Shown piece by piece: positions 2,535-28,504 of a stretch of 64,000 bases of DNA. The notes beneath the pieces are model-generated. The model ran no database searches, was not told where the DNA came from, and saw only the letters and a list, made by a program, of their open reading frames with translations. Origin of the DNA: Candidatus Moraniibacteriota bacterium (GTDB lineage Bacteria; Patescibacteriota; Minisyncoccia; Moranbacterales; UBA2206); NCBI GenBank assembly GCA_049303795.1, contig JBAQNM010000013.1:2784-66783 (forward strand), given 5' to 3'. The position numbers were made by a program, and so were the translations under genes. Numbering within the stretch: the first letter of the stretch is position 1; each line of letters starts with the position of its first letter.

Positions 2535-2600
2535 CTAGTATAAAAAAGTAACCACAAAGATTGGGAGTAAGGAGTAATTAATTAACTAATTTAAAAAATT

Positions 2601-2861
2601 ATGACGAACAATAAAAATAAAACATTCGAAGAAAAAATAAAAGAGGCTGACATTAAAGTTATAAATCGTAAACTCTCACAAGAATTCATTTCACTTTTTG
2701 AAGAGCAAAAACAATTGCTCTTAGAAGTAGAAAGAGTATTCAAGGAAAAATATAATATCTCCGGGCGTGGGAGAATAATTGCAATTTTATGTAGGTATGT
2801 TCTTTCAGAAATTGAAAGTGAATCAGAGATATTGGAGGTAAAAGAAAAAGATGGCAAGTAA
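2601..2861 (+). CDS. Hypothetical small protein
   Basis: 86-aa ORF; its stop overlaps the start of the next gene. Confidence 0.3.
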   Translation: MTNNKNKTFEEKIKEADIKVINRKLSQEFISLFEEQKQLLLEVERVFKEKYNISGRGRIIAILCRYVLSEIESESEILEVKEKDGK

Positions 2862-3909: not shown

Positions 3910-3913
3910 CATT

Positions 3914-4534: not shown

Positions 4535-4538
4535 GAAA

Positions 4539-6648: not shown

Positions 6649-6773
6649 TTATGAGTGAAATATTTTTTCTAATTTACAGTATATGTCTATCTATTTTAAT
6701 TTTTAATCTCATTTTTTAAATGTTCCCATAATGTATGTTTTCGGAAGTTTTTAATTTGTAATAAATCAATAAT

Positions 6774-7253
6774 ATGACAGTAAAAATTAAGTTTTTAAAT
6801 TCGGTTGGGCAGGAGAGGTTTTTGCATAATTTGGTGAATGCTAAAAAGAGAAACCTAAACTATAAACATTTGTATCATAGACTTATCAATGAAGCTAAAG
6901 ATAAAGTATCTTTTCACATCAGCGATGAAAACAATAATGCGGTTGTTTTTTGTGAGATAAATTTTTATCCCGCTGAGAATCTGGTGGACATTGAATGTCA
7001 GCCTTGCGATTTTGGTAAACTACAATCATTTCTAATATTTGATTTGTTGGAATCCATCAATGAGAAAGCCGTGGCTAGATTTATTGATGAGAAATTTTAC
7101 TTTGATGGCAGTGTGGATTTCTATATTTTGATTGATGGAAAAAAAGAGATAATCCGCAAAGTTTCTTCAGATAGGGAAAATTTATTGGAAGTGACAAATG
7201 CCAGAATTATCGGGCAAGTTATGGTTGAAATTAAGGCACTTGACTTGATTTAG
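6774..7253 (+). CDS. Hypothetical protein
   Basis: 159-aa ORF between terminase and integrase. Confidence 0.4.
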   Translation: MTVKIKFLNSVGQERFLHNLVNAKKRNLNYKHLYHRLINEAKDKVSFHISDENNNAVVFCEINFYPAENLVDIECQPCDFGKLQSFLIFDLLESINEKAVARFIDEKFYFDGSVDFYILIDGKKEIIRKVSSDRENLLEVTNARIIGQVMVEIKALDLI

Positions 7254-7267
7254 GATACGAAGGTAAT

Positions 7268-8158
7268 GTGTGTCACAATGAAGTAAAGAGGCACACAAAA
7301 ATGCATAGGTATATAAAAAAATATATAGAATATCTTCGCATCGAAAAAGGATTGAGCGAAAATACGATTGAGATTTATACTAGGGACCTTTTGGAATTCG
7401 GAAAATTTATAAAAAAGTTATCGTTTAATAAATTGGCAAGGACTCACATTCGTGAGTTTCTTTGCTTTTTAGTAGAGAAAAACAATCAGCCGATAACTAG
7501 AAGAAGAAAAATGACATCAATTAAAAACTTCTTTGAATTTTTGGAGAATGAGGATTTGATAAAAAACAGTCCAGTTAAAAATATTGCAACATTAAAAGTT
7601 AAAGAAAATGAACCAAGTTATTTGACTGAACAGGAATTGAAAAAGTTAATCAAGGTTGTCAGTGAAGACAAATCTAAACATCAAGAAAGAAACAAATTGA
7701 TGATAAAGATTTTGATTGAAACAGGCATCAGAATTTCAGAGCTAACAAATTTAAGTGTTGGAGATATCGATACTAAATCTAGGATAATAATAGTCAAAAG
7801 AAAGGGTGGTCAAAAACAAAGCATTCCAATAAATATTGAGTTGGCGAAAAATATTAAGCAGTTGGCTAAAAATAAAGAAATATCTGAACCATTGTTTATG
7901 AGCAGTTTTAAAAAGAGAATTACACAAAGAAGAGTAGGGATGCTGGTTCAAAAATATCTGAAGCTAACAAGAATAACCAAACTGAATATTTCAGTCCATA
8001 GCTTACGTCATAGTTTTTGCTCGAGGTTATTGGAAAAAGGCGTGAATCTGAAAACGATTCAAATATTGGCTGGACACAAAAATATTTCGACTACTGAAAG
8101 ATATTTGCATATAGCCAAATCACGGCTCAGAAAGGAGGTGAGGCTGGCGGAAATTTGA
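7268..8158 (+). CDS. Tyrosine recombinase/integrase (XerC/D family)
   Basis: C-terminal catalytic box HSLRHSFCSRLLEKGVNLKTIQILAGHKNISTTERYLH (R..HxxR..Y). Confidence 0.85.
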   Translation: MCHNEVKRHTKMHRYIKKYIEYLRIEKGLSENTIEIYTRDLLEFGKFIKKLSFNKLARTHIREFLCFLVEKNNQPITRRRKMTSIKNFFEFLENEDLIKNSPVKNIATLKVKENEPSYLTEQELKKLIKVVSEDKSKHQERNKLMIKILIETGIRISELTNLSVGDIDTKSRIIIVKRKGGQKQSIPINIELAKNIKQLAKNKEISEPLFMSSFKKRITQRRVGMLVQKYLKLTRITKLNISVHSLRHSFCSRLLEKGVNLKTIQILAGHKNISTTERYLHIAKSRLRKEVRLAEI

Positions 8159-10857: not shown

Positions 10858-12354
10858 ATGGAAAAAATAACGCTTTCAGAACTGGAGCAATTTCTCTGGA
10901 AAAGTGCTGATATTCTCCGAGGAAAAATCGACTCCAGCGACTATAAAAAATACATATTTGGTCTGCTTTTCTATAAGCGGATAAATGACGTTTGGGCTGA
11001 AGAGCACGAGGCGTTTTTAAAGGAGTATAAAAATACAGGAGCGGAAGAAGAACCATTCCACCGATTTCAACTTCCTGAAGATGCTAAATGGGAAACGATT
11101 CAAAATGCTTCACAAGAAATTGGAATAAAATTAGACAAGGCTTTTGAAAAACTGACTAATGCTAATAGTCCGAAATTGGACAAGATTTTTGACGACCTTA
11201 ATTTTGCCGATTCAGATAGATTTCCAAATGATGTCATTCAAAAACTTATCAATCACTTCTCTCATTACAATTTCGGAGACACTTATGTGAATTCGGATAT
11301 TTTGGGAGACGCTTATGAATACCTGATTAAGCAATTTGCAGCCGATGCTGGAAAGAAGGGCGGAGAATTTTATACTCCACGAGAAGTTGAGCGTGTAATA
11401 GTTCAAATCTTGAAGCCTCACGAAAAAGACCATATATATGACCCAACTTGTGGCAGTGGAGGATTCCTATTGGAAGCATATCATTACGTTAAGGAAAAAT
11501 ATGGCGACAAGGCGATAAGAAAACTTTATCTCTATGGTCAGGAACTAAACATCGGAACTTATGCCATCGCCAAAATAAATATGTTTTTGCACGGATTGGA
11601 CGGAGCAGACATTAGAAGAGAGGACACATTAAAAGAGCCGTTATTTAAGGATGAGCTGGGAAACTTAAAAACGTTCGACATCGTGGTAGCAAATCCTCCG
11701 TATTCCATCAAAGAGTGGGCGTTTGAAACTTTTGAGGCAGACAAATATGGAAGACGAAATGGCTTCGATATGCCACCCACAAGAAACGCTGATTATGCAT
11801 TTATTTTGCATATGATTGCTTCGCTTAACCAAAACGGCAGGGCAGGTATTGTTCTTCCACACGGAGTGTTGTTTAGAGGCGGAACCGAAGGAAAGATTAG
11901 AAAACAAATAATCGAAAGAGATTTATTAGAGGCGGTAGTGGCATTACCAGTCAAACTTTTCTATGGCACTGGAATTCCAGCGTGCATATTGATTCTTAAT
12001 AAAAACAAGCTAAAAGAACATAAGGATAAGATTTTACTTATTGATGCCGAGAAGGATTATCTGGAGGGTAAAAATCAGAACAGTTTGCGAGAACAGGATA
12101 TTAAAAAAATAGTTAAAGCATTTGATAATTATCAGGACATTGAAAAATATGCAAGAATTATTGGACTGGATGAACTGAAGGAGAATGCTTTTAATCTCAA
12201 TGTTAGGCGGTATATTAAAAATGACGAAGATGAGGAAAAGATTGATGTAAACAAAGTTTGGAAAGAGCTAACAGAATTAGAAGATGAGAAAGATAAGATA
12301 AATAAAGATGTTGCTGGATATATTAAGAACCTTGGCTATCGAAATAATGATTAA
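10858..12354 (+). CDS. hsdM: Type I restriction-modification methyltransferase subunit
   Basis: HsdM N-terminal LWKSADILRG motif and catalytic NPPY (VVANPPYSIK). Confidence 0.9.
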   Translation: MEKITLSELEQFLWKSADILRGKIDSSDYKKYIFGLLFYKRINDVWAEEHEAFLKEYKNTGAEEEPFHRFQLPEDAKWETIQNASQEIGIKLDKAFEKLTNANSPKLDKIFDDLNFADSDRFPNDVIQKLINHFSHYNFGDTYVNSDILGDAYEYLIKQFAADAGKKGGEFYTPREVERVIVQILKPHEKDHIYDPTCGSGGFLLEAYHYVKEKYGDKAIRKLYLYGQELNIGTYAIAKINMFLHGLDGADIRREDTLKEPLFKDELGNLKTFDIVVANPPYSIKEWAFETFEADKYGRRNGFDMPPTRNADYAFILHMIASLNQNGRAGIVLPHGVLFRGGTEGKIRKQIIERDLLEAVVALPVKLFYGTGIPACILILNKNKLKEHKDKILLIDAEKDYLEGKNQNSLREQDIKKIVKAFDNYQDIEKYARIIGLDELKENAFNLNVRRYIKNDEDEEKIDVNKVWKELTELEDEKDKINKDVAGYIKNLGYRNND

Positions 12355-12359
12355 AAGTA

Positions 12360-13601
12360 ATGCAACAAATAAGAGAAAAGTTAAAAAAGGAATGGAAGAA
12401 ATACAAAGTGAAAGAACTTGGGTGTTTGTATGGTGGATTGACTGGCAAAAATAAAGACGATTTTGGTGAGGGTAAAAAGTTTATTCCGTATATGAATGTC
12501 TTTAGAAATAGCAGGATTGATGTTGAGAATATGAGTCTGGTCAAGATAGACGGAAAGGAGAGGCAGAATAAAGCTGTTTATGGTGATATATTTTTCACTG
12601 GGTCATCAGAAACGCCAGAAGATGTTGGAATGAGTTCCGTTCTTTTAGATGAATCTGAGGAGGATGTTTTTTTAAATAGTTTTTGTTTTGGATTGCGATT
12701 GAATAGTTTTGATGTGTTGATGCCAGAGTTTGCTAGATTTTTGTTTCGTTCCCCTGATTTGAGAAAAAAAATATCGCTACTTGCCCAAGGCTCAACCAGG
12801 TTCAATTTATCAAAAAAACACTTTTTAGATATAAATCTGAGTTTACCATCACTAAATGAACAGAAAAAGATTGCTAAAATTTTATTAAGAGTAGATGAGG
12901 ATATTGAAAATGTCGGTAAGACCATAAAGCAAACAATTAAATTGAAAAATGGATTGATGCAGGGGCTATTAACGAAGGGGATAGGACATAAAAAATTTAA
13001 GAAGACAAAATTGGGGATAATTCCAGAAGAATGGGATATCGCTTTGCTCGATTCCGTTGCGAAACGAGGCAGTGGACATACTCCAAGCAAATCAAAACCA
13101 AATTATTGGAACGGAGGTATCAAGTGGGTTTCTTTAGCTGATTCTTCTGAACTGGACAATAGATACATTTGTTCTACCGATAAGGAGATAAGTGAGGATG
13201 GGATAAAAAATTCATCGGCTGTGTTGCATCCAGCAGGAACTGTAATTTTATCTCGTGATGCAGGAGTAGGAAAGAGTGCGGTGTTATCTTGCGAGATGGC
13301 AGTAAGCCAGCATTTTATTGGTTGGCAGTGCGGTGACAGTCTAAGTAATTTCTATTTATATTATTTATTTCAAAATTGGAAGAGCGAGTTTGAAAGGATA
13401 GCCACAGGCACAACTATAAAAACAATAGGGTTGCAGTTTTTCAAAGACTTAAAGGTGCCATTGCCAAGCTATAAAGAGCAAAAAAAAATCGCAGATATTT
13501 TAACAAGAGTTGATGACAAAATCGATGTTTATAAAAGTATTAAATCAAAACTTGAAATTTTGAAAAAGGGATTGATGCAGGATTTATTTGTTAGTGATTA
13601 A
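12360..13601 (+). CDS. hsdS: Type I restriction-modification specificity subunit
   Basis: Two target-recognition domains separated by conserved LPxL.EQKKIA repeats (LPSLNEQKKIAKIL / LPSYKEQKKIADIL). Confidence 0.85.
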   Translation: MQQIREKLKKEWKKYKVKELGCLYGGLTGKNKDDFGEGKKFIPYMNVFRNSRIDVENMSLVKIDGKERQNKAVYGDIFFTGSSETPEDVGMSSVLLDESEEDVFLNSFCFGLRLNSFDVLMPEFARFLFRSPDLRKKISLLAQGSTRFNLSKKHFLDINLSLPSLNEQKKIAKILLRVDEDIENVGKTIKQTIKLKNGLMQGLLTKGIGHKKFKKTKLGIIPEEWDIALLDSVAKRGSGHTPSKSKPNYWNGGIKWVSLADSSELDNRYICSTDKEISEDGIKNSSAVLHPAGTVILSRDAGVGKSAVLSCEMAVSQHFIGWQCGDSLSNFYLYYLFQNWKSEFERIATGTTIKTIGLQFFKDLKVPLPSYKEQKKIADILTRVDDKIDVYKSIKSKLEILKKGLMQDLFVSD

Positions 13602-13606
13602 AAAAT

Positions 13607-14500
13607 ATGTCCATATTGGAAGAACAAATGAATATATGGGCAAAGGCTCCAAGTGAAACGGAGGAAACTAAATGCCAAAATGCGGTTAGTAGGATTACCG
13701 ATACTATAAGAAAGAAATTTGGTAATGATGTTTCTATTTTATTACAGGGTTCTTATAAAAATAGGACTAATGTTAGATTGGATAGTGACGTAGATATAGT
13801 GGTTTCTCATCAAGGACATTTCTTCCCTGGTCTCAGTAATTTATCACCTGCTGATAAGGAAGTTTATCATAGTATATATAAAAACTCAGACTACACATTT
13901 TCCCAGTTCAAGAATGACATTCATATAATTTTACAGGACGAGTTTGATGCTGGAGAGGTTGAGCGAAAAAATAAATGCATAAAAATAAAGGGTAATTCAT
14001 ATAGAGTTAACGCAGATGTTGTTCCTTGCTATCCTCATCGCAGATATAGAAGTGTGAGTGATGTGGAAGTGGAAGGATTTGGGTTCGTTGGTGATGATGG
14101 CGTGACAGTTTATAGTTTTCCAGAACAACATTATGATAATGGAGTGGGCAAAAACAAAGAAACCGAGCAGATGTATAAGTCATTGGTGAGGATATTAAAA
14201 AATGTAAGAAATGATTTGGTAGATAAAGGCATAATCACGCTAGACGATATGCCTTCTTTCTGCTTAGAGTGTCTAGTGTGGAATGTTCCCTCGGAGCATT
14301 TTATAAGGAATAGATATCACGATGCAACACGAATTGTCCTAGCGACTATTTGGAATGAGATGAGGGAATTTGAGAAGTCGAATAATTATGCGGAAGTTAG
14401 TGACTTAAAATGGTTATTTAGGGGGAGCAGTAAAATAACACCCAAGCAAGCTGAAAATTTTATGCAACACGCTTGGGATTACATAGGATATGAAAATTAA
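13607..14500 (+). CDS. cGAS/DncV-like nucleotidyltransferase (CD-NTase, SMODS-type); CBASS cyclase candidate
   Basis: Pol-beta nucleotidyltransferase signature GS-x10-DSDVD (LLQGSYKNRTNVRLDSDVDIVV) plus third acidic residue in the cGAS/OAS-like hDhhP strand (NADVVPCY); 297 aa, typical CD-NTase size. Confidence 0.65.
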   Translation: MSILEEQMNIWAKAPSETEETKCQNAVSRITDTIRKKFGNDVSILLQGSYKNRTNVRLDSDVDIVVSHQGHFFPGLSNLSPADKEVYHSIYKNSDYTFSQFKNDIHIILQDEFDAGEVERKNKCIKIKGNSYRVNADVVPCYPHRRYRSVSDVEVEGFGFVGDDGVTVYSFPEQHYDNGVGKNKETEQMYKSLVRILKNVRNDLVDKGIITLDDMPSFCLECLVWNVPSEHFIRNRYHDATRIVLATIWNEMREFEKSNNYAEVSDLKWLFRGSSKITPKQAENFMQHAWDYIGYEN

Positions 14501-15089
14501 CTCAAACAACTATAAAAAATTTACTTACTTTATTCTAGTTCTTATTGGAATAAGTTCCTTTGTCGTTTACAAAATGTTTGATTTGATAGAAGCAAATAAC
14601 ATAAAAATTCCATTTTATTTTTCCATTCCTTCTATTCCAGCGGTTTATGGTTTACTTTTCTTGGCGTTCGACAGGGTGCTGTGGAAATGGAAAATTTTTA
14701 GGATGCTTGGAATTATTACCGCTGATGATTTGAATGGAGAATGGGAGGGGACTGCCAAATCTTCTTTTGAAGAATTCAAAGAGGAAATAAAGGTTAAACT
14801 AAAAATAAAGCAAACCGCTACAGAAATGACAGTTTATGGTTGTTTTGATAATTCAAAATCAATTAGTCTGAATGCAAATTTTGAGAAAAATGATGTTGAT
14901 GATGGAGTGGCATTATTTTATTTTTATAGAAATCAGCCAGACTATGATGCCAAGGAAACAATGGCAATACACGAAGGTGCTACCAAGTTAATTTATAATA
15001 AACAAGATAATTCCCTGACAGGATTCTACTTCTCTGGAAGAAATAGAAATAATCACGGAACAATCAAGGTGTTTAAGGATAAGAAATAA
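14490..15089 (+). CDS. 2TM beta-rich effector, Cap15/S-2TMbeta-like; CBASS effector candidate
   Basis: Two N-terminal TM helices (FTYFILVLIGISSFVVY, IPAVYGLLFLAF) then a ~120-aa beta-rich soluble domain; start overlaps the cyclase stop by 11 nt. Confidence 0.5.
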   Translation: MKINSNNYKKFTYFILVLIGISSFVVYKMFDLIEANNIKIPFYFSIPSIPAVYGLLFLAFDRVLWKWKIFRMLGIITADDLNGEWEGTAKSSFEEFKEEIKVKLKIKQTATEMTVYGCFDNSKSISLNANFEKNDVDDGVALFYFYRNQPDYDAKETMAIHEGATKLIYNKQDNSLTGFYFSGRNRNNHGTIKVFKDKK

Positions 15090-15093
15090 CATT

Positions 15094-18012
15094 ATGAAAT
15101 TTAACGAACAGCACACCATAGAAAATCACATAATCAAATACTTCAAAAATGACTTGAAGTATGAATACATCAAACCTGAAGAGTTTGCTAAATTCAGGGA
15201 GTTTGAAAATGAATATCTGATTACTCCGCTTCTTCAGGAATCAATCAAAAAACTGAATGGCATTGATGACGATAATCTTGTCCAGCTTCTAACCAAGGAA
15301 CTTAAGAAGATAGACAATAACGAGGAATTTTTGATGGCTCTGCGGAACGGCATAAACTATAAAGACCCAGCGACTGGCAAAAAGACAGACTATAAGGTGG
15401 TTGATTTTGAAAATATAGACAATAACCGTTTTGTCGTTACCAATCAGTTCTATTTTGAAGGCAACGCTGAAAACATCAGACCAGATGTGATGGTATTCGT
15501 TAACGGCATTCCAGTATCTGATATTGAAGCCAAGAGTCCAACAGCATCTATTACAGTCAGCTGGGAGAACGCAGTCGGACAAATCAAGCGGTATGAGAAT
15601 GTTGCTCCAAGGATGTTTATCGCTAACTGTTTCAATGTGGTGACTGACGGAACGGAAAGTGGAACTCGCTATGCTTCTACTCATTCACCGATTCAATACT
15701 TTTTCCAGTGGAAAGACGAAGAGAATAAAGACAAGTTTGAGGGCAATCTGGAGCTGACACTTTGGAATCTATTTAACAAGAAGCAACTTTTGGATATTAT
15801 TCAAAACTTTATTGTCTTTGAGAAAGAAGGTGGAAAAGTAGTTAAGAAAGTTTGTCGCTACCAGCAGTATAGAGCATCCAATAAGATTTTAGACAGAGTT
15901 ATTAAAAACGAGAGCAAGAAAGGACTCGTTTGGCATACTCAAGGCTCTGGAAAATCAATGACGATGTTTTTCACGGCTTGGAAATTGCGTTATGCGAAGG
16001 AGCTGAAGAATCCGAAAGTCTTTATTTTGGTTGACCGCATTGATTTGGATGACCAACTGCACGACACATTCACGGCTTGCGGTGGTAAGAATGTGATGCG
16101 AGTCACTTCCAGAAAAGTTCTGGAAGATAAAATAACCAGCGATGAACGAGGGATATTTATCACAACCATCCAGAAGTTTTCCGAACTTGGGAAAAATATC
16201 GAAAATGAAGATAGTAACATTGTCGTCTTGACTGACGAGGCTCATCGCACCAATGAGGGAATATCAGGAATCAACGCTCGGTCATCACTCAAGAACGCTT
16301 TTTGGTTTGGCTTTACTGGAACACCGATTGATAGGACTACTCTGAACACGCATCGCAATTTTGGCGAGGAAGGGGAGCGGTATTTAGATTATTATTCTAT
16401 CCAGCAAGCGATTGACGATGGGGCGACTTTGCCAGTGTATTTTGAGACTCGCCTGTCCAAGTATTTCATAAACGAGGAAGGGCTGGATGAACAATTCGAT
16501 GAATTAACCAAAGGACTCACTGACAAGCAAAAGGAAGAACTGAAAAAGGCGTATGGCAAAAAAGAAGCGATTGTAAAATTGATTAAAAGGGTAGAAGCCG
16601 TTGCTGTCGATATTGCCGAGCATTACAAGATTTATATTTTGCCGAATAACTTTAAGGCTCAAGTGGTTTGCTATGATAAGGAGGCTTGTTTAATGTATAA
16701 AAAAGCGTTAGACAAGGTTATCCCAGAAAACTGGTCTAAGATAATTTATTCGACTGGGGATTTGAATGTTGAAGCGGATGAAATAAAGAAATACTACACG
16801 ACTAAGGATGAGAGAAAGAAATTCATCGAAGCCTTCAAAGACAAAAATCAAGACCCAAAGATTTTGATTGTCTGCGATATGTTGCTTACTGGATTTGACG
16901 CTCCGATTGAGCAGGTGATGTATTTAGATAAACCGCTTCTTGACCACAGCTTACTTCAAGCTATTGCCAGAACTAACCGAGTTTATCCGAACAAGGGTTG
17001 TGGTAAGGTTATCGACTATTACGGCATAACGAGAAGTTTGGAGAAAGCGTTAGATTTTGACGAGAGCATTATCAATTCCGCAATGATTGATATTGATAGG
17101 CTCAAAGAGCAGTTCCAAGAGAAATTGAAGGATTGTCTAGATATATTTGCTGGAATCAATATCGAAGACCCATCAATGGAGAATCTGCGAAGAAGCCTCC
17201 GCATCTTTGCCGATAACAGGGATAAGCAGAAAATGTTTGAAAATCTGTTCAGCAAAATCAAGCTGATATTTGAAATAATTTCTCCAGACCCATTCTTGAA
17301 GCCGTATGTAAGACAAGTAGAATGGCTCGCCAGTTTTTACATTGCTTATACCAGAGAATTCAAGGCACAAACTGATGAGGAAATCCGAATGGAAGAATAC
17401 GGTGAGAAAATCAAGAAACTTATTCAGGAGAAAATAGACTTGCAGGGAATCATCAGAACTTTCAGAGAAATAAATATAGGAGATTTATATCAAATCAAGC
17501 AATTGGAGAAGATGGAGGATGAAGACAAAGCAAGAGCATTGGAAAAGATGCTTAAGAGTGAAATCTCCATAAATCTGGATACGAATCCGACTTATGACAA
17601 ATTCAGCGAAAGGTTGATGAAAATCAAAAAGGACTTTGAGGATAATCAGATAGATTTGGATAAGAAAATCAAAGAACTTCAGAAATTGAGAGAGGACTTG
17701 GTGGACAAGAGGGATGAAGCCAAAAAACTCGGCTATAACTTGCAGGAATACGGCATTTACGTTATTTCACAGGAATTCATTGAGAATATAGATAGCAAAG
17801 AAACTAAGCCATTTATTCAGGATATGGTTGAGGCGATAACTGATACACTGGACACTGGTTGGCAAGAGTCGTCTAAAAAAGAAGAATTTATCAAGGAAAT
17901 TAGACGTAAATTAACCAAGCTGATTCTCAAGGATTATCAAGAAAAGATTAAGATTAAGGATTTTGCCAAATATCTTAATAGAATTATTGACGTAATCCAA
18001 AGGAAATTTTAA
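15094..18012 (+). CDS. hsdR: Type I restriction enzyme R subunit (SF2 helicase/endonuclease)
   Basis: 972 aa; DEAH-box-like LTDEAHRT and the other helicase motifs; typical HsdR N-terminal region. Confidence 0.9.
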   Translation: MKFNEQHTIENHIIKYFKNDLKYEYIKPEEFAKFREFENEYLITPLLQESIKKLNGIDDDNLVQLLTKELKKIDNNEEFLMALRNGINYKDPATGKKTDYKVVDFENIDNNRFVVTNQFYFEGNAENIRPDVMVFVNGIPVSDIEAKSPTASITVSWENAVGQIKRYENVAPRMFIANCFNVVTDGTESGTRYASTHSPIQYFFQWKDEENKDKFEGNLELTLWNLFNKKQLLDIIQNFIVFEKEGGKVVKKVCRYQQYRASNKILDRVIKNESKKGLVWHTQGSGKSMTMFFTAWKLRYAKELKNPKVFILVDRIDLDDQLHDTFTACGGKNVMRVTSRKVLEDKITSDERGIFITTIQKFSELGKNIENEDSNIVVLTDEAHRTNEGISGINARSSLKNAFWFGFTGTPIDRTTLNTHRNFGEEGERYLDYYSIQQAIDDGATLPVYFETRLSKYFINEEGLDEQFDELTKGLTDKQKEELKKAYGKKEAIVKLIKRVEAVAVDIAEHYKIYILPNNFKAQVVCYDKEACLMYKKALDKVIPENWSKIIYSTGDLNVEADEIKKYYTTKDERKKFIEAFKDKNQDPKILIVCDMLLTGFDAPIEQVMYLDKPLLDHSLLQAIARTNRVYPNKGCGKVIDYYGITRSLEKALDFDESIINSAMIDIDRLKEQFQEKLKDCLDIFAGINIEDPSMENLRRSLRIFADNRDKQKMFENLFSKIKLIFEIISPDPFLKPYVRQVEWLASFYIAYTREFKAQTDEEIRMEEYGEKIKKLIQEKIDLQGIIRTFREINIGDLYQIKQLEKMEDEDKARALEKMLKSEISINLDTNPTYDKFSERLMKIKKDFEDNQIDLDKKIKELQKLREDLVDKRDEAKKLGYNLQEYGIYVISQEFIENIDSKETKPFIQDMVEAITDTLDTGWQESSKKEEFIKEIRRKLTKLILKDYQEKIKIKDFAKYLNRIIDVIQRKF

Positions 18013-21394: not shown

Positions 21395-22666
21395 ATGGAT
21401 ATACTAAACAAACCAATTGAATATTTTAAATTTGAAGATGTAGTCGCGTTTTGCGAAAAAGGATATAGAGAAGGATTTCAAATTGATTATAAGCGGGATT
21501 ATTCTTCAAAAGGATTATCAAAACATATAGTGGCTTTATCCAATAGTAGGGGTGGAGTAATTATAATTGGAGTGGAGGAAGATATTAAAACGGGATTTCC
21601 GAAAAGCTGGGATGGCATAGATACTGATGCGAAGCAAATAGAAAAATTACATCAAGAAATAGCAAATATTGAGCCATTTCCTTCTTGCATTGTTCACGCT
21701 ACAGATTCAAAAAATGATAAGTTTTTTATTTTAGTCAGGGTTTTTGCAGGATACAACACTCCTTATTATGTGCAAAATGATTCAAATGTCTATGTCAGAA
21801 CAGGGAATATTACAAAGCAAATAGACATTGCTTCTCCAGATGGACTGGAACTTATGTTTGGAAAGAAAGAGAAAGCTGAAAAATCTAGAAAAATATATCT
21901 GTCAATGGCTGATGAAATTTTTGACGCAAAGATATTAAAGAAAGAAGATGAAATAATAAGAGAGAGTAGAAAGGTGGGCGAGGAAGTTATTTTTAAAAGC
22001 AGAAGGTTTCTTATTGCAGATGTCTCTATATGTGAGATAACTATCCAGCCATTTTTTCCAGAAAAATCATTTGCTAATCCAAAAGAAATAAAAGATGGAA
22101 TTGATGAGATTAGATTTGGGAATGGAAATTTTACATTTCCTGAATTAAATTTATCACCTTCGCCAAAAGGAATTATGTTTTTTACCTTTCTGAAGCACAA
22201 TAGTTTAATTGAGTTTCAGCAAATTTTTGGTCAAGGACTAATTCAAAATAAATTTACTATTTCGGTATTAAACGAAGATACTGGATTTAAAATAGTGAGC
22301 CTTTGGAGAATGGCTGTTAGAATTTTCGGTGTATTTCAATTTGCCAAGAAATTTTATAACAAATATGGTTACAGCGGAGTGTTAATAGGAAGAATAAATT
22401 TGGCTGGCTTAGATGGTGCATTTGCAAGGCAATTAACGCCCGCTGGTCGTGATTTTTGGGAAAAAGATAGGGAGTGTTTGCTTACTGAATGTAACTGGGA
22501 CATAAGAATTGATACTAATATTTTAAATAATGAAGAGGATTTAAAAAAATACTTTATAAATTTATTGAGAGAAATTTATTGGGATTTAGGATTTGAAAAT
22601 ATTATGGAAGATGTTGTTGACGATTTCTTGAAACAAAGTGGCCTATCTTTTGAAGTGGATAACTAA
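21395..22666 (+). CDS. AlbA_2 (Schlafen-like) domain protein
   Basis: HIVALSNSRGGVIIIGVEED matches the AlbA_2 core (AfaN..GG.lliGV.D); 423 aa with an uncharacterised C-terminal half. Confidence 0.55.
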   Translation: MDILNKPIEYFKFEDVVAFCEKGYREGFQIDYKRDYSSKGLSKHIVALSNSRGGVIIIGVEEDIKTGFPKSWDGIDTDAKQIEKLHQEIANIEPFPSCIVHATDSKNDKFFILVRVFAGYNTPYYVQNDSNVYVRTGNITKQIDIASPDGLELMFGKKEKAEKSRKIYLSMADEIFDAKILKKEDEIIRESRKVGEEVIFKSRRFLIADVSICEITIQPFFPEKSFANPKEIKDGIDEIRFGNGNFTFPELNLSPSPKGIMFFTFLKHNSLIEFQQIFGQGLIQNKFTISVLNEDTGFKIVSLWRMAVRIFGVFQFAKKFYNKYGYSGVLIGRINLAGLDGAFARQLTPAGRDFWEKDRECLLTECNWDIRIDTNILNNEEDLKKYFINLLREIYWDLGFENIMEDVVDDFLKQSGLSFEVDN

Positions 22667-23618
22667 TTTGACTTATTTTCTCACGAAGGTAACATCGAAC
22701 AAATCGATGTTATTTTTTAAAAAACAAAATTCAATAAAAATTAGTGAAGCTGGAAAGAAATATCTGGATTATTGTGAATTGGAAAAAGAGATGAGTCCTG
22801 CTTCAATTTATGAATACAGTAAAGTTATAAAATGGACGGTGGAAATATTAGGTAACCTTGAGGCTGGGAAAATAAAGGAAGAGCATATTGCAGAACTTAA
22901 GAAAGAATATAACAGAAGAGAATTGATGCCAACCACAAGAGCTCATAACTTATCTGTTATCAGAGAACTATTGAGATTTTGTCAGGATGAATTGCATATC
23001 AAAGTAATGGATTTTGAAAAAATAAAAAGACCAAAGATTCCAAAAAGAAGAGTTGATTATCTCACAGAAGAAGAATTGAAAAGGTTTTTTGATTCAATCG
23101 GAAAACGCAGTATCAGAGATTCTAGATTTAGAGCGTTTATTTCAGTTCTTATTTCCACGGGCTGTCGAATAAGTGAAGCATTGAATCTGAAAATTCAAGA
23201 TATGGATTGGGAGAGAAAAGAAGTGACCATTGTTGGTAAAGGCAACAAACAAAGAAAATTATATTTTACTGAATGGTCATTGAAATGTATCAGGGAATAT
23301 ATTGAAAAAAGAGGCTATGAAGGAAAATTTATTTTTGTAGCTGAAAGCAAGACAAATCGCTGGGATAGAAATGATGCTCAGCGGAATTTCAGAAATTATC
23401 GCAGGAAGCTAGGATTATCTGCAAACTTCACTGCTCACACAATTCGTCACAGCTTCGCTACGCTTCTTATGAAAAAAGGTGTCAGTCTCGGACATATTCA
23501 AGTTTTGCTCGGGCATTCAGACATCCAAACCACCAGCAAACACTATCTGGGAATTTTGAGTGATGACGAAGCTAAGCAGGCACACGAAAAGGGGATGAAT
23601 ATGAATAATTGGGTATAA
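22638..23618 (+). CDS. Tyrosine recombinase/integrase (XerC/D family). GTG start in the ORF track; an ATG at 22707 is an alternative.
   Basis: HTIRHSFATLLMKKGVSLGHIQVLLGHSDIQTTSKHYL catalytic box; RISEALNL arginine box. Confidence 0.85.
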   Translation: MAYLLKWITNLTYFLTKVTSNKSMLFFKKQNSIKISEAGKKYLDYCELEKEMSPASIYEYSKVIKWTVEILGNLEAGKIKEEHIAELKKEYNRRELMPTTRAHNLSVIRELLRFCQDELHIKVMDFEKIKRPKIPKRRVDYLTEEELKRFFDSIGKRSIRDSRFRAFISVLISTGCRISEALNLKIQDMDWERKEVTIVGKGNKQRKLYFTEWSLKCIREYIEKRGYEGKFIFVAESKTNRWDRNDAQRNFRNYRRKLGLSANFTAHTIRHSFATLLMKKGVSLGHIQVLLGHSDIQTTSKHYLGILSDDEAKQAHEKGMNMNNWV

Positions 23619-23774: not shown

Positions 23775-24842
23775 ATGTTAAAAATTATAAGCAACAAACT
23801 AAATGAACGACAAAACACCACATTAGCTTTTATTGAGGCTAATAAATCTGTTTCAATTGGACAGATTTTTGAGCATATCCAGAAAGATTTTGAAAAAATT
23901 ACTAGAATTACTGTTTCTAGAGATTTGGAAAAACTGTTAAAACTGAGTCTAATTGAAAAACAAGGAGAATCAAAAAGAACGATTGTTTATCAAATATCAT
24001 CCCAATACTCAATACTAAAAAAGATTGATGTCGAAAAGTATTTTTCTGTAGACACTGACCAGAGAGAAAGCAAAGAAAAATTCAACTTTGAAATTTTCAG
24101 TCAACTGAGAGGTATCTTTACTGATGCTGAAAAAAAGAAACTCATCGAGCTGAATGAAATTTACAGAGAGAAGATAAAAGATATTGCACTAGACGCTCTC
24201 CGAAAAGAAATCGAAAGACTGAATATAGATTTCAGCTGGAAGTCTTCTAAAATCGAAGGTAACACTTATAGTCTTTTAGAAACGGAGCAACTAATTAAGA
24301 ATCAGCAGGAAGCGTCAGGTCATACTAAGGAAGAAGCAATTATGATTCTGAATCATAAAAAGACGCTAGATTACATTAGAGGCAATAAGAATGACTTTCA
24401 ATCAGTGTCTGTGGCTAAAATTGAAAATATCCACTCTCTGTTAGTAGATGGCTTAAACGTGACTAAAAATTTGAGAAAAAGTTTGGTCGGAATAACCGGA
24501 ACAAATTACAGACCATTAGACAACGAATTCCAAATTAGAGAGGCTTTGGAAAAAGCCTGTAAATTAGTGAACGAAACCAAGGATGTTTTTGAAAAAGCAG
24601 TTATTTTGATGTTGCTTATTGCATATATTCAACCATTTGTAGATGGCAATAAGAGAACAAGCCGTTTGAGCGGTAATGCCATTTTACAATCCTTTGATTC
24701 TTGTCCGTTATCTTACCGCAGTATGGATGAAATAGAATATAAAAAAGCGATTTTACTGTTTTATGAGCAGAACAACATTTCATATTTCAAGGAGCTGTTT
24801 TTAAAACAGTTTGAATTTGCTGTGGAAAATTATTTCGGATAA
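23775..24842 (+). CDS. Fic/Doc family protein with non-canonical active-site motif
   Basis: Fic motif position reads QPFVDGNKRTSR instead of HPFx(D/E)GNGRxxR; N-terminal wHTH-like region. Confidence 0.65.
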   Translation: MLKIISNKLNERQNTTLAFIEANKSVSIGQIFEHIQKDFEKITRITVSRDLEKLLKLSLIEKQGESKRTIVYQISSQYSILKKIDVEKYFSVDTDQRESKEKFNFEIFSQLRGIFTDAEKKKLIELNEIYREKIKDIALDALRKEIERLNIDFSWKSSKIEGNTYSLLETEQLIKNQQEASGHTKEEAIMILNHKKTLDYIRGNKNDFQSVSVAKIENIHSLLVDGLNVTKNLRKSLVGITGTNYRPLDNEFQIREALEKACKLVNETKDVFEKAVILMLLIAYIQPFVDGNKRTSRLSGNAILQSFDSCPLSYRSMDEIEYKKAILLFYEQNNISYFKELFLKQFEFAVENYFG

Positions 24843-24850
24843 TCAATTTT

Positions 24851-25441
24851 ATGAAACTACTATTAACATCAACAGGATTAACCAATAAAAATATAAAAAA
24901 GTTTTTCATCTCTCAATTTGATAGATTGGACGATAAAACGGCTTGCCTCGTGACTTCAGGCAGAAATAAAGAAGAACAATTCTATATAGATGAGTCAATT
25001 AAAGAGTTAGAAGACTTTGGCATTAAAGTTATTGAGTTTAATATTGCCAAGCACGAGAGTTTTGTTAATTTTCCATTATATGATATTTATTATGTTTGCG
25101 GAGGCAATACTTTCTATATCCTAGACCGAATGCGAAAAACAGGCGTGGATAAAATTCTGATTAACGCTGTCAAAAAAGGAAAATTTTATCTTGGTGTTAG
25201 CGCTGGAAGCATTATCTCAGGACCTGATATTGAAGTGGCAAATCTGGGAGACCCAAATGATATAAATCTTAAGGACTTAACGGGCTTGAAACTTGTTTCA
25301 TATATTACTATCCCGCACTATAACCAAAAGGATAAAAATGCTATTGATAAATTTAAAGAAAAACGTAAAGATGCACAAGTAATCGCACTAACTGACGACC
25401 AAGCTATTTTTGTTGAAGATGGCAAAATGGTCTTGATATAA
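24851..25441 (+). CDS. Peptidase S51 (dipeptidase E-like)
   Basis: VCGGNTFYIL and LGVSAGSII (Ser nucleophile) motifs of S51/PepE. Confidence 0.65.
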   Translation: MKLLLTSTGLTNKNIKKFFISQFDRLDDKTACLVTSGRNKEEQFYIDESIKELEDFGIKVIEFNIAKHESFVNFPLYDIYYVCGGNTFYILDRMRKTGVDKILINAVKKGKFYLGVSAGSIISGPDIEVANLGDPNDINLKDLTGLKLVSYITIPHYNQKDKNAIDKFKEKRKDAQVIALTDDQAIFVEDGKMVLI

Positions 25442-25464
25442 TTATATAGAATTGGTCAAATTTC

Positions 25465-25493
25465 TTGACAAGAGGAACTATTAGAGCTAGAAT
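25465..25493 (+). promoter_or_regulatory. Strong sigma70-like promoter (TTGACA-17 nt-TAGAAT) facing a region with no ORF
   Basis: TTGACA 25465-25470, TAGAAT 25488-25493. Confidence 0.5.
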
Positions 25494-25499
25494 ATTCCA

Positions 25500-25850
25500 G
25501 TGATGAAATTGATAGTATTTTGAAATTTATCCTTGTTTTTTGCGATTCTTCCCACGAATCACCTCCTTTCTAGGGAGAAAAGATGGAATTCCAGAGCATT
25601 ACACATTAAAGGTATTTAGTGTCAAAACAAAATATCGTGTAGTGTGGATTTCATCCGGCGGTCGAATCCCGAGCAATCGGGAGAACGCCTAAGCCCACGA
25701 GAGCTATAATCTCCAGTGTGTTTTGTACAGCACGCGATTGATTCAGTAATGAATCTCTCAAATCGGACTCTTCTATAGGACTAATCGCAAAAAATTGGGA
25801 TACGAAAAACAGAAAATACTCGAATAGAGTGTTTTTTGTTTTTTGTAATT
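25500..25850 (+). ncRNA. Candidate structured ncRNA or long leader; class unknown
   Basis: A ~350-nt stretch without a credible ORF, downstream of a consensus promoter. It contains a GC-rich island with a GNRA-tetraloop hairpin (CCCGA-GCAA-TCGGG, 25667-25680) closed by GGCG/CGCC, and ends in a weak ACTC-GAAT-AGAGT hairpin plus T-run (~25820-25848). Confidence 0.3.
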
Positions 25851-25920
25851 CAGTTTTTGATTTAGCTCGGTCCGCAATGCCGGACCTTTGACAATAAAAA
25901 ATAGTATTGGAGATGGCAAA

Positions 25921-26034
25921 ATGAAGGATGTTCGTGGGAAAAAAGAGACTGATTTTATTTCGACGATAATTGTGAAAGTGTATTGTTCGCCAGCTTTCTT
26001 TCGCATTATTTTAATCGCGAAGGCATTTTTATAA
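25921..26034 (+). CDS. Small hydrophobic peptide (37 aa)
   Basis: GGAG 8 nt upstream of the ATG; MKDVRGKKETDFISTIIVKVYCSPAFFRIILIAKAFL. Confidence 0.3.
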   Translation: MKDVRGKKETDFISTIIVKVYCSPAFFRIILIAKAFL

Positions 26035-26067
26035 AAAATTTCAAAAGGAAAAGGAGGTAAATCAATA

Positions 26068-26196
26068 ATGCCGGATTTGATAGATGATGGCAGTGAAAAA
26101 AAACTTAAGGTTTCTTTTGTGAAATTGCAAAAAAGGCTTTTTATAGCCATCGGAGCATATGGCTTTCTTGTATTGTTTGTAATTCTTAAATCATAA
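26068..26196 (+). CDS. Small membrane peptide (42 aa, C-terminal TM)
   Basis: Strong RBS AAGGAGGT 8 nt upstream; MPDLIDDGSEKKLKVSFVKLQKRLFIAIGAYGFLVLFVILKS. Confidence 0.45.
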   Translation: MPDLIDDGSEKKLKVSFVKLQKRLFIAIGAYGFLVLFVILKS

Positions 26197-26212
26197 GTAA
26201 AAAATGGAGGAG

Positions 26213-26335
26213 ATGATGGCAATAAAAATCAAAAAAGTGGCCACTTTTTTTGTTCTCTTTGGCTACGCTATTGGAATTCTTGAAGATCTGTATTTGGCAG
26301 AGCTTTTAAAAGAAGAAGTCAAAGAAGAAGCTTGA
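26213..26335 (+). CDS. Small membrane peptide (40 aa, central TM)
   Basis: RBS GGAGGAG; MMAIKIKKVATFFVLFGYAIGILEDLYLAELLKEEVKEEA; followed by a strong terminator. Confidence 0.4.
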   Translation: MMAIKIKKVATFFVLFGYAIGILEDLYLAELLKEEVKEEA

Positions 26336-26394
26336 ATAAATTCAGGCAACAACCTTAAAACAACAAAGCCTGATTAATATTTTTCAGGCGAATA

Positions 26395-26432
26395 CCTCGG
26401 AAACTAGAATTTTAGTTTACCGAGGTTTTTTA
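26395..26432 (+). terminator. Intrinsic terminator
   Basis: CCTCGGAAACT...AGTTTACCGAGG stem followed by TTTTTTATT. Confidence 0.6.
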
Positions 26433-26674
26433 TTAGCTAGTATTATTTTTAAAACCGATATTGACACAAATCTATTTTTGAGCAATAATAAATAAACAAC
26501 AATATTGCAAGGTAGTAGTTAATTTTGGAAAGTGTTAGTGAAAACTTCGAAAACTACTTAACGAATTGCAAAAAATCGCTTCTATTTTAAGAGAAAAGAT
26601 TTAAATAAGCAGGAACAAATTGTATCTAAAAAGCAATTATCTCGCTTATAATTTAAATCTTTTTTTAATTTTAT

Positions 26675-28504
26675 ATGAACAAAGAAAAAAGCTTAGCCCA
26701 GGCTAGAAAACATTTAACTTATATTTGTGAAAGCATAGTCAACGAACTTCAAAAGACAAAAGATTCACTGAAGCGAAGTAAAGAAAGATTTAGCTCGCTT
26801 TCGTATGCTGATCAAATGGTGGAAAGTAGAGTTATCAATTTCGGAGAAAAAAGGATCCAAGAATTGAAATATCTTGAAGGTTCACCATATTTCGTGCGTT
26901 GCGACGTGCTGTTTAATGAAGCAGAAAAAGAAGAAATTATTTATTTCGGAAAATTCGGCTTTGATAAAAAGGACATTTATTCGTGGATAGCTCCAGCTTC
27001 TGTTATTCGCTTTGAGAAACCAGGAGAAGTGAGCTATAGGCGTCCCGATGGAGCAATGCAGAAAATAAAGCTTTTGCGAAAAGACCAATATATGATCGTT
27101 GATGGTAAAATTAAATTTCTGTCATCAGAAGTATTGGGAATGCCACAAGAATTGATATATGAAGAATATTTTTCTACCAAGAAAAAAGATTTTATTCTTC
27201 CGGAAATTGTCGCCCAAATGGAAAAAGCTCAGGATCAGGTGATCAGAGCTTTCCATAAAGGTTCATTTCTTATTTCTGGTCCAGCTGGAAGTGGCAAAAC
27301 GACTCTAGCTTTGCACCGCGTGGCATATCTCACGCAATCTCCCGATTTGGCGGATATATATAAAAGTAAAACAGTGGTGGTTTTTGTTCAAGATGAAGGA
27401 ACAAGAGGCTATTTTTCGCATCTTCTTCCAGAGCTGGGAATTGATGATGTAAAAATTGTCACTTTTTCGCAGTGGGCTTTTGAGATATTAGATATTAAAG
27501 GAGTTTTCTTGGATAGATTTGGAAAATCAGAAGATGAAAGAGATCTATATGAATTTCAAAAATTAAAAGCATTGAAAAAAGTATCCAAATATTCAGGCAT
27601 GAAAAATGATAATTTTTCAATACTCGAAAAAATATATGAAAAATATTTCAATCAAGAACAAAAAAGATTATTTCAGAAGCAAAAGGAAGGTAAATTCTAT
27701 GACAGAATAGATTTAACTTTGCTTTTGAAAATATTCTATCGAAATAATAAAGGACTGAGCGTTATAAGGGATTCCTATATCGAACAAAAAAACGGATTAG
27801 TGAAAAAGAAACGCGGACCGGTATTTTTGGAATATTCTTTGGCTGTGATTGATGAATTTCAGAATTACTTACCTGATCAGTTGGAACTTATGAAGTCTTG
27901 TATTAATAAAAAAAATCAAGCACTTGTTTATGTTGGAGATATGGCTCAGCAAGTGAAGTTAGGAACAATTCGCCGATGGGAAGATATTGGAGAAAAAATG
28001 GAAGGTGATCGCAAAGTGATTTTGCAAAAAGTCTATAGAAATACGAAAAACATACTGTTATTTATAAAAAAATTAGGCTATCAAGTTGAAATACTTCCGC
28101 AATTAAAGGAAGGAGTGGAAGTGAGAGAGTATCTTTTTCAAACTAAAGATCAGGAAATAGAGAAAATTAAAAATATTATCAAAAACAGTAATTTTTCCAG
28201 TATTGGAATATTGGCAAAAGAGGATCAGTATTTGGTTGAATTTAGAAACGCTTTTTCTCAAAATAATAAAATTCATATAATGACGATGAGTGAATCGCAA
28301 GGAGTGGAATTTGACTGGGTAATTCTGGTGGGGATTAGTCAGGAAGCATTTTTCGTTTCTGATGAAAAAAATCACTCAGAACTGGCGCAAGAGAAAAAAA
28401 GAATTAACAAGGACTTACTATATGTGGCACTTACTCGAGCTATTTCTCAGTTGTATGTTATGGGCAAGGAAAAGTTGCAAGACATTATTCATAGGGATAT
28501 CTAA
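26675..28504 (+). CDS. UvrD/Rep-type SF1A DNA helicase (HelD-like, with ~190-aa N-terminal extension)
   Basis: Walker A ISGPAGSGKT, Walker B VIDEFQN, C-terminal SQGVEFDWVILVG and LYVALTRA motifs. Confidence 0.75.
   Translation: MNKEKSLAQARKHLTYICESIVNELQKTKDSLKRSKERFSSLSYADQMVESRVINFGEKRIQELKYLEGSPYFVRCDVLFNEAEKEEIIYFGKFGFDKKDIYSWIAPASVIRFEKPGEVSYRRPDGAMQKIKLLRKDQYMIVDGKIKFLSSEVLGMPQELIYEEYFSTKKKDFILPEIVAQMEKAQDQVIRAFHKGSFLISGPAGSGKTTLALHRVAYLTQSPDLADIYKSKTVVVFVQDEGTRGYFSHLLPELGIDDVKIVTFSQWAFEILDIKGVFLDRFGKSEDERDLYEFQKLKALKKVSKYSGMKNDNFSILEKIYEKYFNQEQKRLFQKQKEGKFYDRIDLTLLLKIFYRNNKGLSVIRDSYIEQKNGLVKKKRGPVFLEYSLAVIDEFQNYLPDQLELMKSCINKKNQALVYVGDMAQQVKLGTIRRWEDIGEKMEGDRKVILQKVYRNTKNILLFIKKLGYQVEILPQLKEGVEVREYLFQTKDQEIEKIKNIIKNSNFSSIGILAKEDQYLVEFRNAFSQNNKIHIMTMSESQGVEFDWVILVGISQEAFFVSDEKNHSELAQEKKRINKDLLYVALTRAISQLYVMGKEKLQDIIHRDI

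Follow-up and report, generated by a model that had tools for sequence, protein, structure and literature searches.

An orphan copy of the 16S rRNA 3′ tail and trailer at the edge of a mobile-element and defence-gene array in Moranbacteria: a probable integration junction

The locus considered here lies in a 64-kb window (the whole stretch of DNA that was analyzed, 64,000 nucleotides) and occupies the 480-nt interval between an S51 peptidase gene (24851-25441) and a small open reading frame (ORF) starting at 25921. The initial annotation reported a near-consensus promoter firing into an ORF-free region, and both observations hold. The sigma-70-like promoter TTGACA-17-TAGAAT (25465-25493, plus strand) agrees with the consensus at 11 of 12 positions and is the joint best within 24500-27000. 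Downstream of it, no credible ORF is found over approximately 400 nt (25465-25850) or in the interval as a whole: the plus strand contains a single 50-aa ORF with a TTG start (25540-25692), and the minus strand a 22-aa GTG ORF behind a reverse-complemented Shine-Dalgarno (SD) sequence. The interval was left empty by gene callers in seven independent assemblies, all of which are 100% identical across it. The GC-rich island described in the same annotation is also present (GC content of 0.46-0.51 at 25600-25750 vs. about 0.30 on either side), as are the GNRA hairpin CCCGA-GCAA-TCGGG inside a GGCG/CGCC helix (25657-25689) and an anti-SD-like segment, CACCTCCTTTCT, at 25560-25571. The region ends with an intrinsic terminator (25802-25858, plus strand) formed by a 20-bp AU-rich hairpin (25802-25846) and a subsequent T-run; since three G-U pairs are found in this hairpin, the terminator is specific to the plus strand. 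The small ORF at 25921 does exist (37 aa, plus strand), but nothing was found to support its status as a gene.

No second copy of the region, either as a MITE or as another repeat, is present within the 64-kb window, and no tRNA or tmRNA was detected by ARAGORN. Plasmid and phage collections gave no blastn match for 25442-25925. An exact 30-mer from the GC-rich core was also absent from viral and genome contigs; such a pattern is too specific, because the hairpin covaries among relatives.

The left part of the window (1-25441) is made up of mobile-element and defence genes. These include genes for a D12-class DNA methyltransferase, ParB, and the large terminase subunit TerL; an integrase (7268-8158) accompanied by a Pif1-like helicase; a type I restriction-modification system, with a type I CBASS (cyclase and 2TM effector) sitting between hsdS and hsdR; as well as a PD-(D/E)XK nuclease, an S24/HTH repressor, and a Schlafen/AlbA (SLFN) protein. 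Two more integrases are located just upstream of the window. The three plus-strand genes closest to the locus encode an Xer-like tyrosine recombinase (22638-23618; Pfam Phage_integrase, 1.9e-38, plus a SAM-like N-terminal domain), a Fic/SoFic-like protein (23775-24842; assigned by Pfam, and as SoFic by PADLOC), and the S51 peptidase mentioned above (assigned by Pfam). The last of these marks the DNA as coming from a metagenome-assembled genome of Candidatus Moranbacteria (Moraniibacteriota, CPR/Patescibacteria). The integrase-Fic(-S51) gene order recurs in three related loci (L017, L134, and L066). To the right of the locus, a HelD-like helicase (26675-28504, plus strand; NCBIfam HelD_BACSU, 4e-40, below the cut-off) was taken as the chromosomal flank.

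Comparison loci were obtained from the surroundings of S51 homologs, one genome per species, which were searched with the candidate region. In two of these loci (L010 and L012), blastn and nhmmer matched 25540-25800 to the sequence directly after genuine 16S 3′ ends, which read ...GTAACAAGG...GGATCACCTCCTTTCT. Since the homolog directly follows genuine 16S 3′ ends, the anti-SD-like CACCTCCTTTCT is the actual 16S 3′ tail, and the structured, GC-rich core downstream of it is the trailer of 16S. The initial annotation had proposed a novel ncRNA family or a riboswitch-like leader; the region is instead a paralogous copy of the 16S 3′ tail and 16S 3′ trailer, and the homology of 25558-25800 to these parts of the Moranbacteria (CPR) rRNA transcript is close to certain. 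The first 14 nt of the copy (ATCACCTCCTTTCT, 25558-25571, plus strand) correspond to the 3′ terminus of 16S rRNA. Together with the following AGGGAG (25558-25577), they are identical to Rfam-confirmed 16S ends in five loci, with complete 16S genes ending inside this core in L134 (582-2070) and L117, and 3′-terminal 16S parts doing so in L098, L110, and L066. The entire segment 25558-25800 matches the profile of the trailer, i.e., the 3′ external transcribed spacer (ETS), on the plus strand with an nhmmer E-value of 2.5e-46. The scan against Rfam, which had been suggested as a check, matched no family, neither for the whole window at gathering thresholds nor for 25300-26700 at E ≤ 10, where Rfam 15 produced chance-level matches only; this outcome is expected for a lineage-specific rRNA spacer.

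The 3′ part of the trailer contains the trailer box GGACTAATCGCAAAAAATTGGGATA (25778-25802, plus strand), the 3′ strand of the pre-16S processing stem, in which GGACTAA-C-CA is invariant across the alignment. The trailer box is complementary to a leader box located approximately 150-200 nt upstream of true 16S genes, and the two therefore form the pre-16S processing stem. In the true 16S operons of the group, the leader box reads ATCACAATTTTTTGTGGTTAGTCCT, and a boxA-like GCACTTTAACAA is found further upstream. The trailer box of the window copy is followed by the terminator hairpin (25802-25846); a terminator ends every trailer examined, and the one in L110 is homologous. The copy shares with the 3′ ETS its full-length homology, the same covarying helices, the trailer box, and the terminator. 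It differs from the 3′ ETS in the absence of a 16S body: 16S sequence does not continue upstream of 25558, so that 25558-25800 stands without a 16S body, and the final 14 nt of 16S are linked directly to a leader-box-like strand by about 10 nt of non-rRNA sequence (CTTCCCACGA). No SSU rRNA was detected by Rfam in the entire 64-kb window. All available assemblies break within another integrase gene, approximately 2.8 kb before the window begins, and the host 16S gene was not recovered. Copies of the 16S tail and trailer lacking the 16S body are referred to below as orphans.

The predicted plus-strand RNA fold of 25500-25850 has an energy of -116.4 kcal/mol (z = -7.4, with no shuffle as good; z = -5.1 for the minus strand) and includes a long-range helix between 25535-25549 and 25783-25800. 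Covariation was analyzed in an alignment of 24 long-type trailers (20 orphans and 4 16S-linked copies), which yielded a consensus of nine helices. Compensatory changes were observed in 35 of 48 pairs. The fraction of pairing cells is 92.6%, compared with 39-44% when the partners are slid by 1-3 columns, and the covariation score is 0.589 vs. 0.08-0.13 in the slid controls; none of 500 shuffles matched the observed covariation values. This support holds in the orphans and 16S-linked copies alike, and the shared trailer helices contain an invariant GGTCG motif and a UUUGUACA loop. Mapped to the plus strand of the window by alignment columns, the consensus includes an anti-SD hairpin (25563-68 with 25572-77), a long hairpin (25582-25655), the GGCG/CGCC helix with the GNRA hairpin (25657-25689), two further trailer helices (25698-25714 and 25716-25735), and an optional hairpin (25739-25755). 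The RNA secondary structure of the region is under selection. The initial proposal is thus borne out with respect to structural conservation in homologous regions, and to the presence of a promoter-like site and a terminator in the lineage of the window, but not with respect to a novel ncRNA or a riboswitch leader. As a by-product, the alignment yields a structural model, supported by covariation, for the 3′ trailer of Moranbacteria pre-16S and its processing stem.

Orphans also occur in relatives. A metagenome scan for AATCACCTCCTTTCTAGGGAG retrieved at least 120 loci. Among the matches listed, 83 of 137 are true 16S ends, and 54 are classified as orphans, about 45-50 of which are real once a few minus-strand ribosome-binding sites are subtracted. 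The 20-nt core of the orphan copy also forms the end of complete 16S genes in related contigs. Nine loci (L010, L012, L066, L082, L098, L110, L134, and L151, as well as L091-type tandem copies) combine a 16S end with one or two orphans located 1.6-9.5 kb downstream on the same strand, with unrelated cargo in between; in these loci the core forms a direct repeat at both ends of the insert, one of its copies lying in the target gene. The second copy in L010 and L012, which has no 16S body, is found 4.6-4.9 kb downstream of the first one. A complete, 6.7-kb example of this architecture is L134, where the 16S gene is followed by the core, trailer A, a terminator, an inverted pair of TTTCNGGGGG-like motifs, three ORFs, an integrase, two Fic proteins, one ORF, a half-site CCTCCCACGA, the core, trailer B, and a terminator. 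The smallest example, L110, has a 2-kb insert with two ORFs, which, judged by eye, look like an AbiE-type pair, followed by the promoter and leader-like block also seen in the window; among the matches listed, it is the closest relative of the window's orphan. Tandem arrays of copies were observed in L082, L129, L091, L071, and L054.

The genes downstream of the orphans are unrelated to each other and include those for an ArsR regulator (L017), membrane proteins (L010 and L012), and a helicase (L120). This observation bears on the possibility that the region is a riboswitch-like or attenuator leader controlling the small ORFs at 25921, 26068, and 26204 together with the helicase. Such a leader would account for the order of promoter, structured RNA, terminator, and ORFs with good SD sequences, and known riboswitches likewise combine a promoter, a highly structured RNA with a GNRA hairpin, and an intrinsic terminator. 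Unlike riboswitches, the region matches no ligand-binding family, with no Rfam family found even at E ≤ 10, and has no conserved class of downstream genes. Moreover, the same RNA follows 16S genes, as reflected in its homology to the rRNA spacer, and a conserved alternative pairing was looked for and not found. The leader explanation is accordingly given very little credence.

The left junction of the repeat is sharp and conserved. Its left edge is always exactly ATCACC, whereas the extent of identity shared to the right varies from the 20-nt core alone (L134, L110, and L098) to approximately 195 nt (L010). Immediately to the left of the edge, the sequence is GTGGATGG or GGCTGA in 16S genes; in orphans it is TCTCCCACGA, conserved in most of the 52 distinct ones among the matches listed. 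The seven identical assemblies and more than 45 independent orphans with the same non-16S left flank rule out an assembly chimera. On the minus strand, the same stretch includes a perfect SD sequence, AGAAAGGAGGTGAT, located 6 nt upstream of the GTG start of the 22-aa ORF (MGRIAKNKDKFQNTINFITGIF). A strong ribosome-binding site with a start codon, embedded in 30 nt of highly conserved sequence, could suggest a gene for a small protein. Nonetheless, the length of this ORF varies between 5 and 71 aa across the 52 orphans among the matches listed, with no common frame or sequence beyond MG, and the conservation around the minus-strand SD is explained by the 16S tail and the adjacent half-site, leaving a minus-strand gene with a negligible likelihood.

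The integrase of the window is located 1.9 kb upstream of the orphan. Its best NCBIfam matches are XerA/XerD/XerC and the integron integrase, all below the equivalog cut-offs. At least 12 other contigs carry homologs with 58-81% identity 0.2-5 kb upstream of orphans and on the same strand. Of the 33 orphan loci among the matches listed that offer enough sequence, approximately 16 have an integrase homolog upstream and co-oriented; none was found in the 34 16S-only loci whose downstream sequence extends to 2.5 kb or more. Just 200-280 nt separate the core from the stop codon of the integrase in L060, L079, and L162; L162, which ends 68 nt after the core, is the only viral contig among the matches listed. 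No integrase is found between the 16S gene and the orphan in L010, L012, and L110, although cargo is present there. In L017, the housekeeping gene xseA is located only 1 kb upstream of the integrase, and there is no 16S gene within 5 kb; either the elements also sit elsewhere, or this locus has been rearranged.

The association with one integrase family and the fixed position of the junction are relevant to the possibility that the orphans are relics of a tandemly duplicated 16S unit whose second copy lost its 16S body, with no role for the integrase and with mobile elements merely gathering in the gap. A promoter and a leader-box-like strand, as expected of a deleted rrn copy, do persist in the orphans of the window and of L110; L074 has a 140-nt 3′ fragment of 16S before its trailer; and the paired trailers in L010, L012, and L082 are near-identical. 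However, more than 45 orphans, which come from many lineages, have the junction at the identical nucleotide, and independent deletions would not produce a single fixed junction. The same non-16S heptamer CCCACGA precedes it, extra TTCTAGGGAG repeats occur nearby, the trailers within one locus often share the 20-nt core alone, and the integrases, all of one family, are co-oriented with the orphans and sometimes immediately adjacent to them. Duplication followed by deletion is therefore considered improbable. The near-identity of the two trailers, which extends over 60-195 nt in several loci, does require gene conversion or a recent common origin, since it would not arise from site-specific recombination alone.

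The sequence at the core suggests two inverted arms as putative recombinase-binding sites. The left half-site TCTCCCACGA and the core form an imperfect inverted repeat around CACCTCC; CCCACGA, the central CACCTCC, and TCTAGGGAG are parts of the putative 33-bp site. In the window, the putative site spans 25547-25579 and consists of the left arm TCTTCCCACGAA, the central region TCACCTCCT, and the right arm TTCTAGGGAGAA, with the anti-SD CCTCC (25562-25566) inside the central region. As read from the sequence, TCTCCCACGAA, TCACCTCCT, and TTCTAGGGAGAT constitute an imperfect inverted repeat of 12+9+12 nt (about 33 bp) with the anti-SD at its centre, and the crossover would be expected inside it. 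The central region of tyrosine-recombinase sites is classically 6-8 nt long, vs. 9 nt here. Additional copies of TTCTAGGGAG are located 53-95 nt upstream in 8 of 33 orphans among the matches listed, whereas about 0.7 would be expected (approximately 11-fold excess); the window has no such copies besides the core. Neither an excised circle nor a free attP was seen among the loci examined.

In L120, the orphan is followed by a HelD-like helicase (65% aa identity), and in L117 a complete 16S gene is followed by the trailer, one ORF, and a helicase homolog (54%), an arrangement that looks like an unoccupied site. The left flanks differ among the orphans with the window's trailer type (L120, L140, and L122). 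The right flank, which is syntenic with the site in L117, behaves as chromosome, the comparison genomes being distant (54-65% aa identity).

Taken together, we consider it likely (a probability of roughly 0.75) that the orphan is the right, attR-like junction of an array of mobile and defence elements integrated at the 3′ end of the 16S gene. Points against it are the unrecovered host 16S gene, the context of L017, the inserts with no integrase, the near-identical paired trailers, the failure to see an excised form, and the 9-nt central region. Most likely, the orphan tail and trailer were split from the 16S gene by the insertion of integrase-carrying mobile DNA. The displaced segment comprises the last 14 nt of 16S, including the anti-SD CCUCC, a structured trailer of approximately 230 nt, one strand of the processing stem, and the terminator. 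In the proposed mechanism, the element's Xer-like tyrosine integrase would act on a site of the element that consists of TCTCCCACGAA as left arm, TCACCTCCT in the centre, and TTCTAGGGAGAT as right arm, and would recombine it with the identical core that terminates the host 16S gene. A replacement trailer and terminator would come with the element, as suggested by the two complete covarying trailers at each occupied locus, and the 16S gene would thereby stay functional. The original tail and trailer of the host, which on this scheme would be the distal, native copy, would be pushed to the far end of the element, in agreement with the synteny of the flanks. The displaced trailer may still be under selection because excision would return it to the 16S gene. 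Further elements would pile up at the same site, and the 25 kb to the left of the orphan may represent such a pile. Gene conversion between copies could explain the near-identical trailers in some genomes and the mosaic pattern of L110.

Under this scheme, the host 16S gene is predicted to lie upstream of the window on the same strand and to end with ...GGATCACCTCCTTTCTAGGGAG, followed by a different, element-borne trailer. Excision would give two products: an attB, in which the 16S body is joined to the trailer from 25578 onward, and an attP, in which ...TTCTTCCCACGA-ATCACCTCC... is joined to the element-borne trailer. No description of the 16S 3′ end as an integration target was found in the full-text literature, the coverage of which is incomplete, so that this is absence of evidence only.

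The promoter at 25465-25493 points into the orphan, and between the two lies the leader-box-like 5′ strand TATCCTTGTTTTTTGCGATTCTTCC (25528-25552, plus strand). It was identified as an inverted repeat and in the minimum free energy fold, pairs with the trailer box, and resembles the true 16S leader box of L134, ATCGCAATTTTTTGCGATTAGTCC. In a targeted duplex test, this closing helix is a duplex of about 25 nt with -27 kcal/mol (z = -5.6). L110 has a promoter with the sequence TTGACA-17-TATGAT, likewise at a distance of 64 nt. The two loci have kept the hexamers and 60 nt of transcribed sequence, whereas the promoter spacer has diverged; thus, in the lineage of the window the orphan is plausibly transcribed as a closed "mini pre-16S" RNA. 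Under the integration scheme, this promoter and a copy of the 16S leader box would belong to the end of the element in that lineage. Among the matches listed, the promoter and leader-box-like strand are common to the window and L110 only, and the closing helix is significant only in these two (z = -5.6 and -4.7), the median z being +0.4 over 27 orphans. Other promoters are located upstream of the orphan in L120 and L077. Overall, promoters with at least 10 of 12 consensus positions are not enriched upstream of orphans among the matches listed (4/51, compared with 5.4% of control windows).

These observations might be taken to indicate a functional stand-alone RNA, in which the orphan, transcribed as a 16S-less "mini pre-16S", would be a sensor or a decoy that, for example, titrates RNase III or 3′-end maturation factors, presents the anti-SD, or keeps the trailer box off the real 16S leader in trans. 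An origin as an att junction is compatible with such a role. The hexamers and the 64-nt distance kept in spite of the diverged spacer, the pairing of the leader-like strand with the trailer box over about 25 nt, the terminator, and the conserved fold all favor it. We nonetheless regard it as unlikely, since the promoter frequency across orphans equals the background, 23 of 27 orphans show no significant closing helix, and the role of the segment as a 16S trailer before insertion and after excision explains the conserved fold equally well. Similarly doubtful is a broader combination, in which CPR elements use the anti-SD tail of the usually single 16S gene as attB and supply a replacement 3′ trailer, and in which, in addition, the displaced trailer in the lineage of the window is actively transcribed from an element-borne promoter into a closed, body-less RNA entering rRNA maturation. 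Such an RNA could buffer processing factors or divert them as a decoy, or it could be a safeguard that masks the orphan trailer box; if this were true, it would tie a mobile element directly to ribosome biogenesis.

Among known systems, the closest are genomic islands and prophages inserted at the 3′ end of a tRNA or tmRNA gene, with P4-type integrases as one example. For example, ssrA-targeting genomic islands of Dehalococcoides integrate at the tmRNA 3′ end and restore the gene with their own copy (PMC3146451). Shared features are a tyrosine recombinase, the 3′ end of a stable-RNA gene as the target, a replacement 3′ segment, flanking direct repeats, tandem accumulation, and variable defence and accessory cargo. 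Unlike in tRNA/tmRNA islands, the target at the orphan sites would be the 16S tail with its anti-SD plus the external spacer, the duplicated segment may comprise a whole structured trailer (140-260 nt) together with its terminator, and a small Xer-like enzyme would act on a dif-like-looking site in CPR hosts. CPR bacteria usually have a single rrn copy. The recombinase is also similar to Xer/dif, IMEX, and integron integrases in being a short XerC/XerD/XerA/IntI-type enzyme with a putative site of two inverted arms of about 12 bp around a short central region. Differences from these systems are that the elements encode their own recombinase instead of using the host Xer, that no second recombinase is evident, and that the site is located in an rRNA gene, rather than at dif or attI/attC, and has a central region of about 9 nt.

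The 16S anti-SD tail is among the most conserved sequences of any bacterial genome. If the integration reading is correct, CPR mobile elements insert precisely there and compensate for the insertion with a working copy of the rRNA 3′ spacer, which would extend the paradigm of tRNA/tmRNA islands to ribosomal RNA; the recombinase and its site of about 33 bp could then serve as a nearly universal bacterial landing pad. For metagenomics, such insertions may help explain why 16S genes of CPR bacteria are found at contig ends beside integrases and defence islands. In screens for ncRNAs, orphan 16S tails and trailers will recur as "novel structured ncRNAs".

Two smaller features of the interval were also considered. 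The S51 peptidase gene does not contain an insertion scar: its C-terminus, VEDGKMVLI, is kept in 32 homologs, and the gene is thus intact. A 17-nt direct repeat (25413-25429 and 25907-25923, 16/17 identical, blast E = 0.31) is probably due to chance.

A 140-nt fragment of the 16S rRNA 3′ end was found at positions 1165–1305 of the related locus L074, where it runs from GCCCGTCACACC through the tail, is devoid of the upstream 16S body, and lies between an orphan trailer (the structured 16S 3′ spacer ending in a terminator) and another trailer. Hence, the stretch of the 16S 3′ end that is duplicated at some junctions is much longer than 14 nt. Tandem trailer copies were observed in L071 (3146 and 4008), L054 (1805 and 2684), and L091 (1433 and 5771), with a spacing of merely 0.9–4.3 kb; in every pair, the second copy lacks the exact 20-nt core that is common to 16S genes and orphans.

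Directly past the trailer terminators, the TTTCNAGGGAGAT motif occurs in inverted pairs with approximately 7 nt between the members, e.g., TCTCCCTGGAAA-TGGTTCG-TTTCTGGGGGCA. Such pairs are present in L134 (2326–2358) and L012 (~6790–6825), as well as past trailer terminators in L149, L140, L147, and L128. They resemble complete Xer-type sites in which the central region is a different one. No inverted TTTCNAGGGAGAT pair was found in the window.

Immediately past the trailer terminator of the window orphan lies a second short GC-rich hairpin, GGTCCG-CAATGC-CGGACC (25862–25886), which is directly followed by TTGACA at 25889; a similar hairpin is located past the terminator in L110. The entire intergenic region holding the orphan is flanked by a 17-nt direct repeat, TTGRAGATGGCAAAATG (25413–25429 and 25907–25923, 16/17 match), one copy of which constitutes the terminal part of the S51 peptidase gene and the other the start of a 37-aa ORF. 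This repeat is probably a chance occurrence, given its Blast E-value of 0.31 and the native C-terminus of the S51 peptidase. Three small ORFs are located 3′ of the trailer (25921–26335), and no family match was found for them. The second and third of these (42 and 43 aa), predicted by gene callers, are preceded by strong SD sequences and encode one hydrophobic helix each; comparable small hydrophobic ORFs lie downstream of the L110 orphan.

The left end of the window (1–8158) and L163 (1–2800) represent a prophage- or satellite-like block, which encodes a radical SAM protein, a D12-class DNA methyltransferase, ParB, TerL (5110–6648), and a Xer-like integrase (7268–8158). Two further integrases are located immediately upstream of the window, bringing the number of co-oriented integrases to at least four within approximately 28 kb. 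In each of four assemblies, the contig terminates within the first of these integrases.

A type I restriction-modification system (10858–18012) consists of HsdM (10858–12354), HsdS (12360–13601), and HsdR (15094–18012). A two-gene type I CBASS is embedded between hsdS and hsdR, comprising an oligonucleotide cyclase (13607–14500; PADLOC, 1.8e-99) and a 2TM/Cap15-like effector (14490–15089).

Related Moranbacteria have 16S rRNA genes in which an insertion close to the 3′ end matches domains D1–D4 of group II introns (Rfam RF01998; L012, 885–1960; L151, 3060–3134), and the L012 insertion encodes a LAGLIDADG-like ORF of 170 aa (1301–1813). In a Parcubacteria genome (L019), a LOOT RNA (Rfam RF03000, 80 bits; 4367–4490) is located approximately 500 nt upstream of an S51 peptidase gene.
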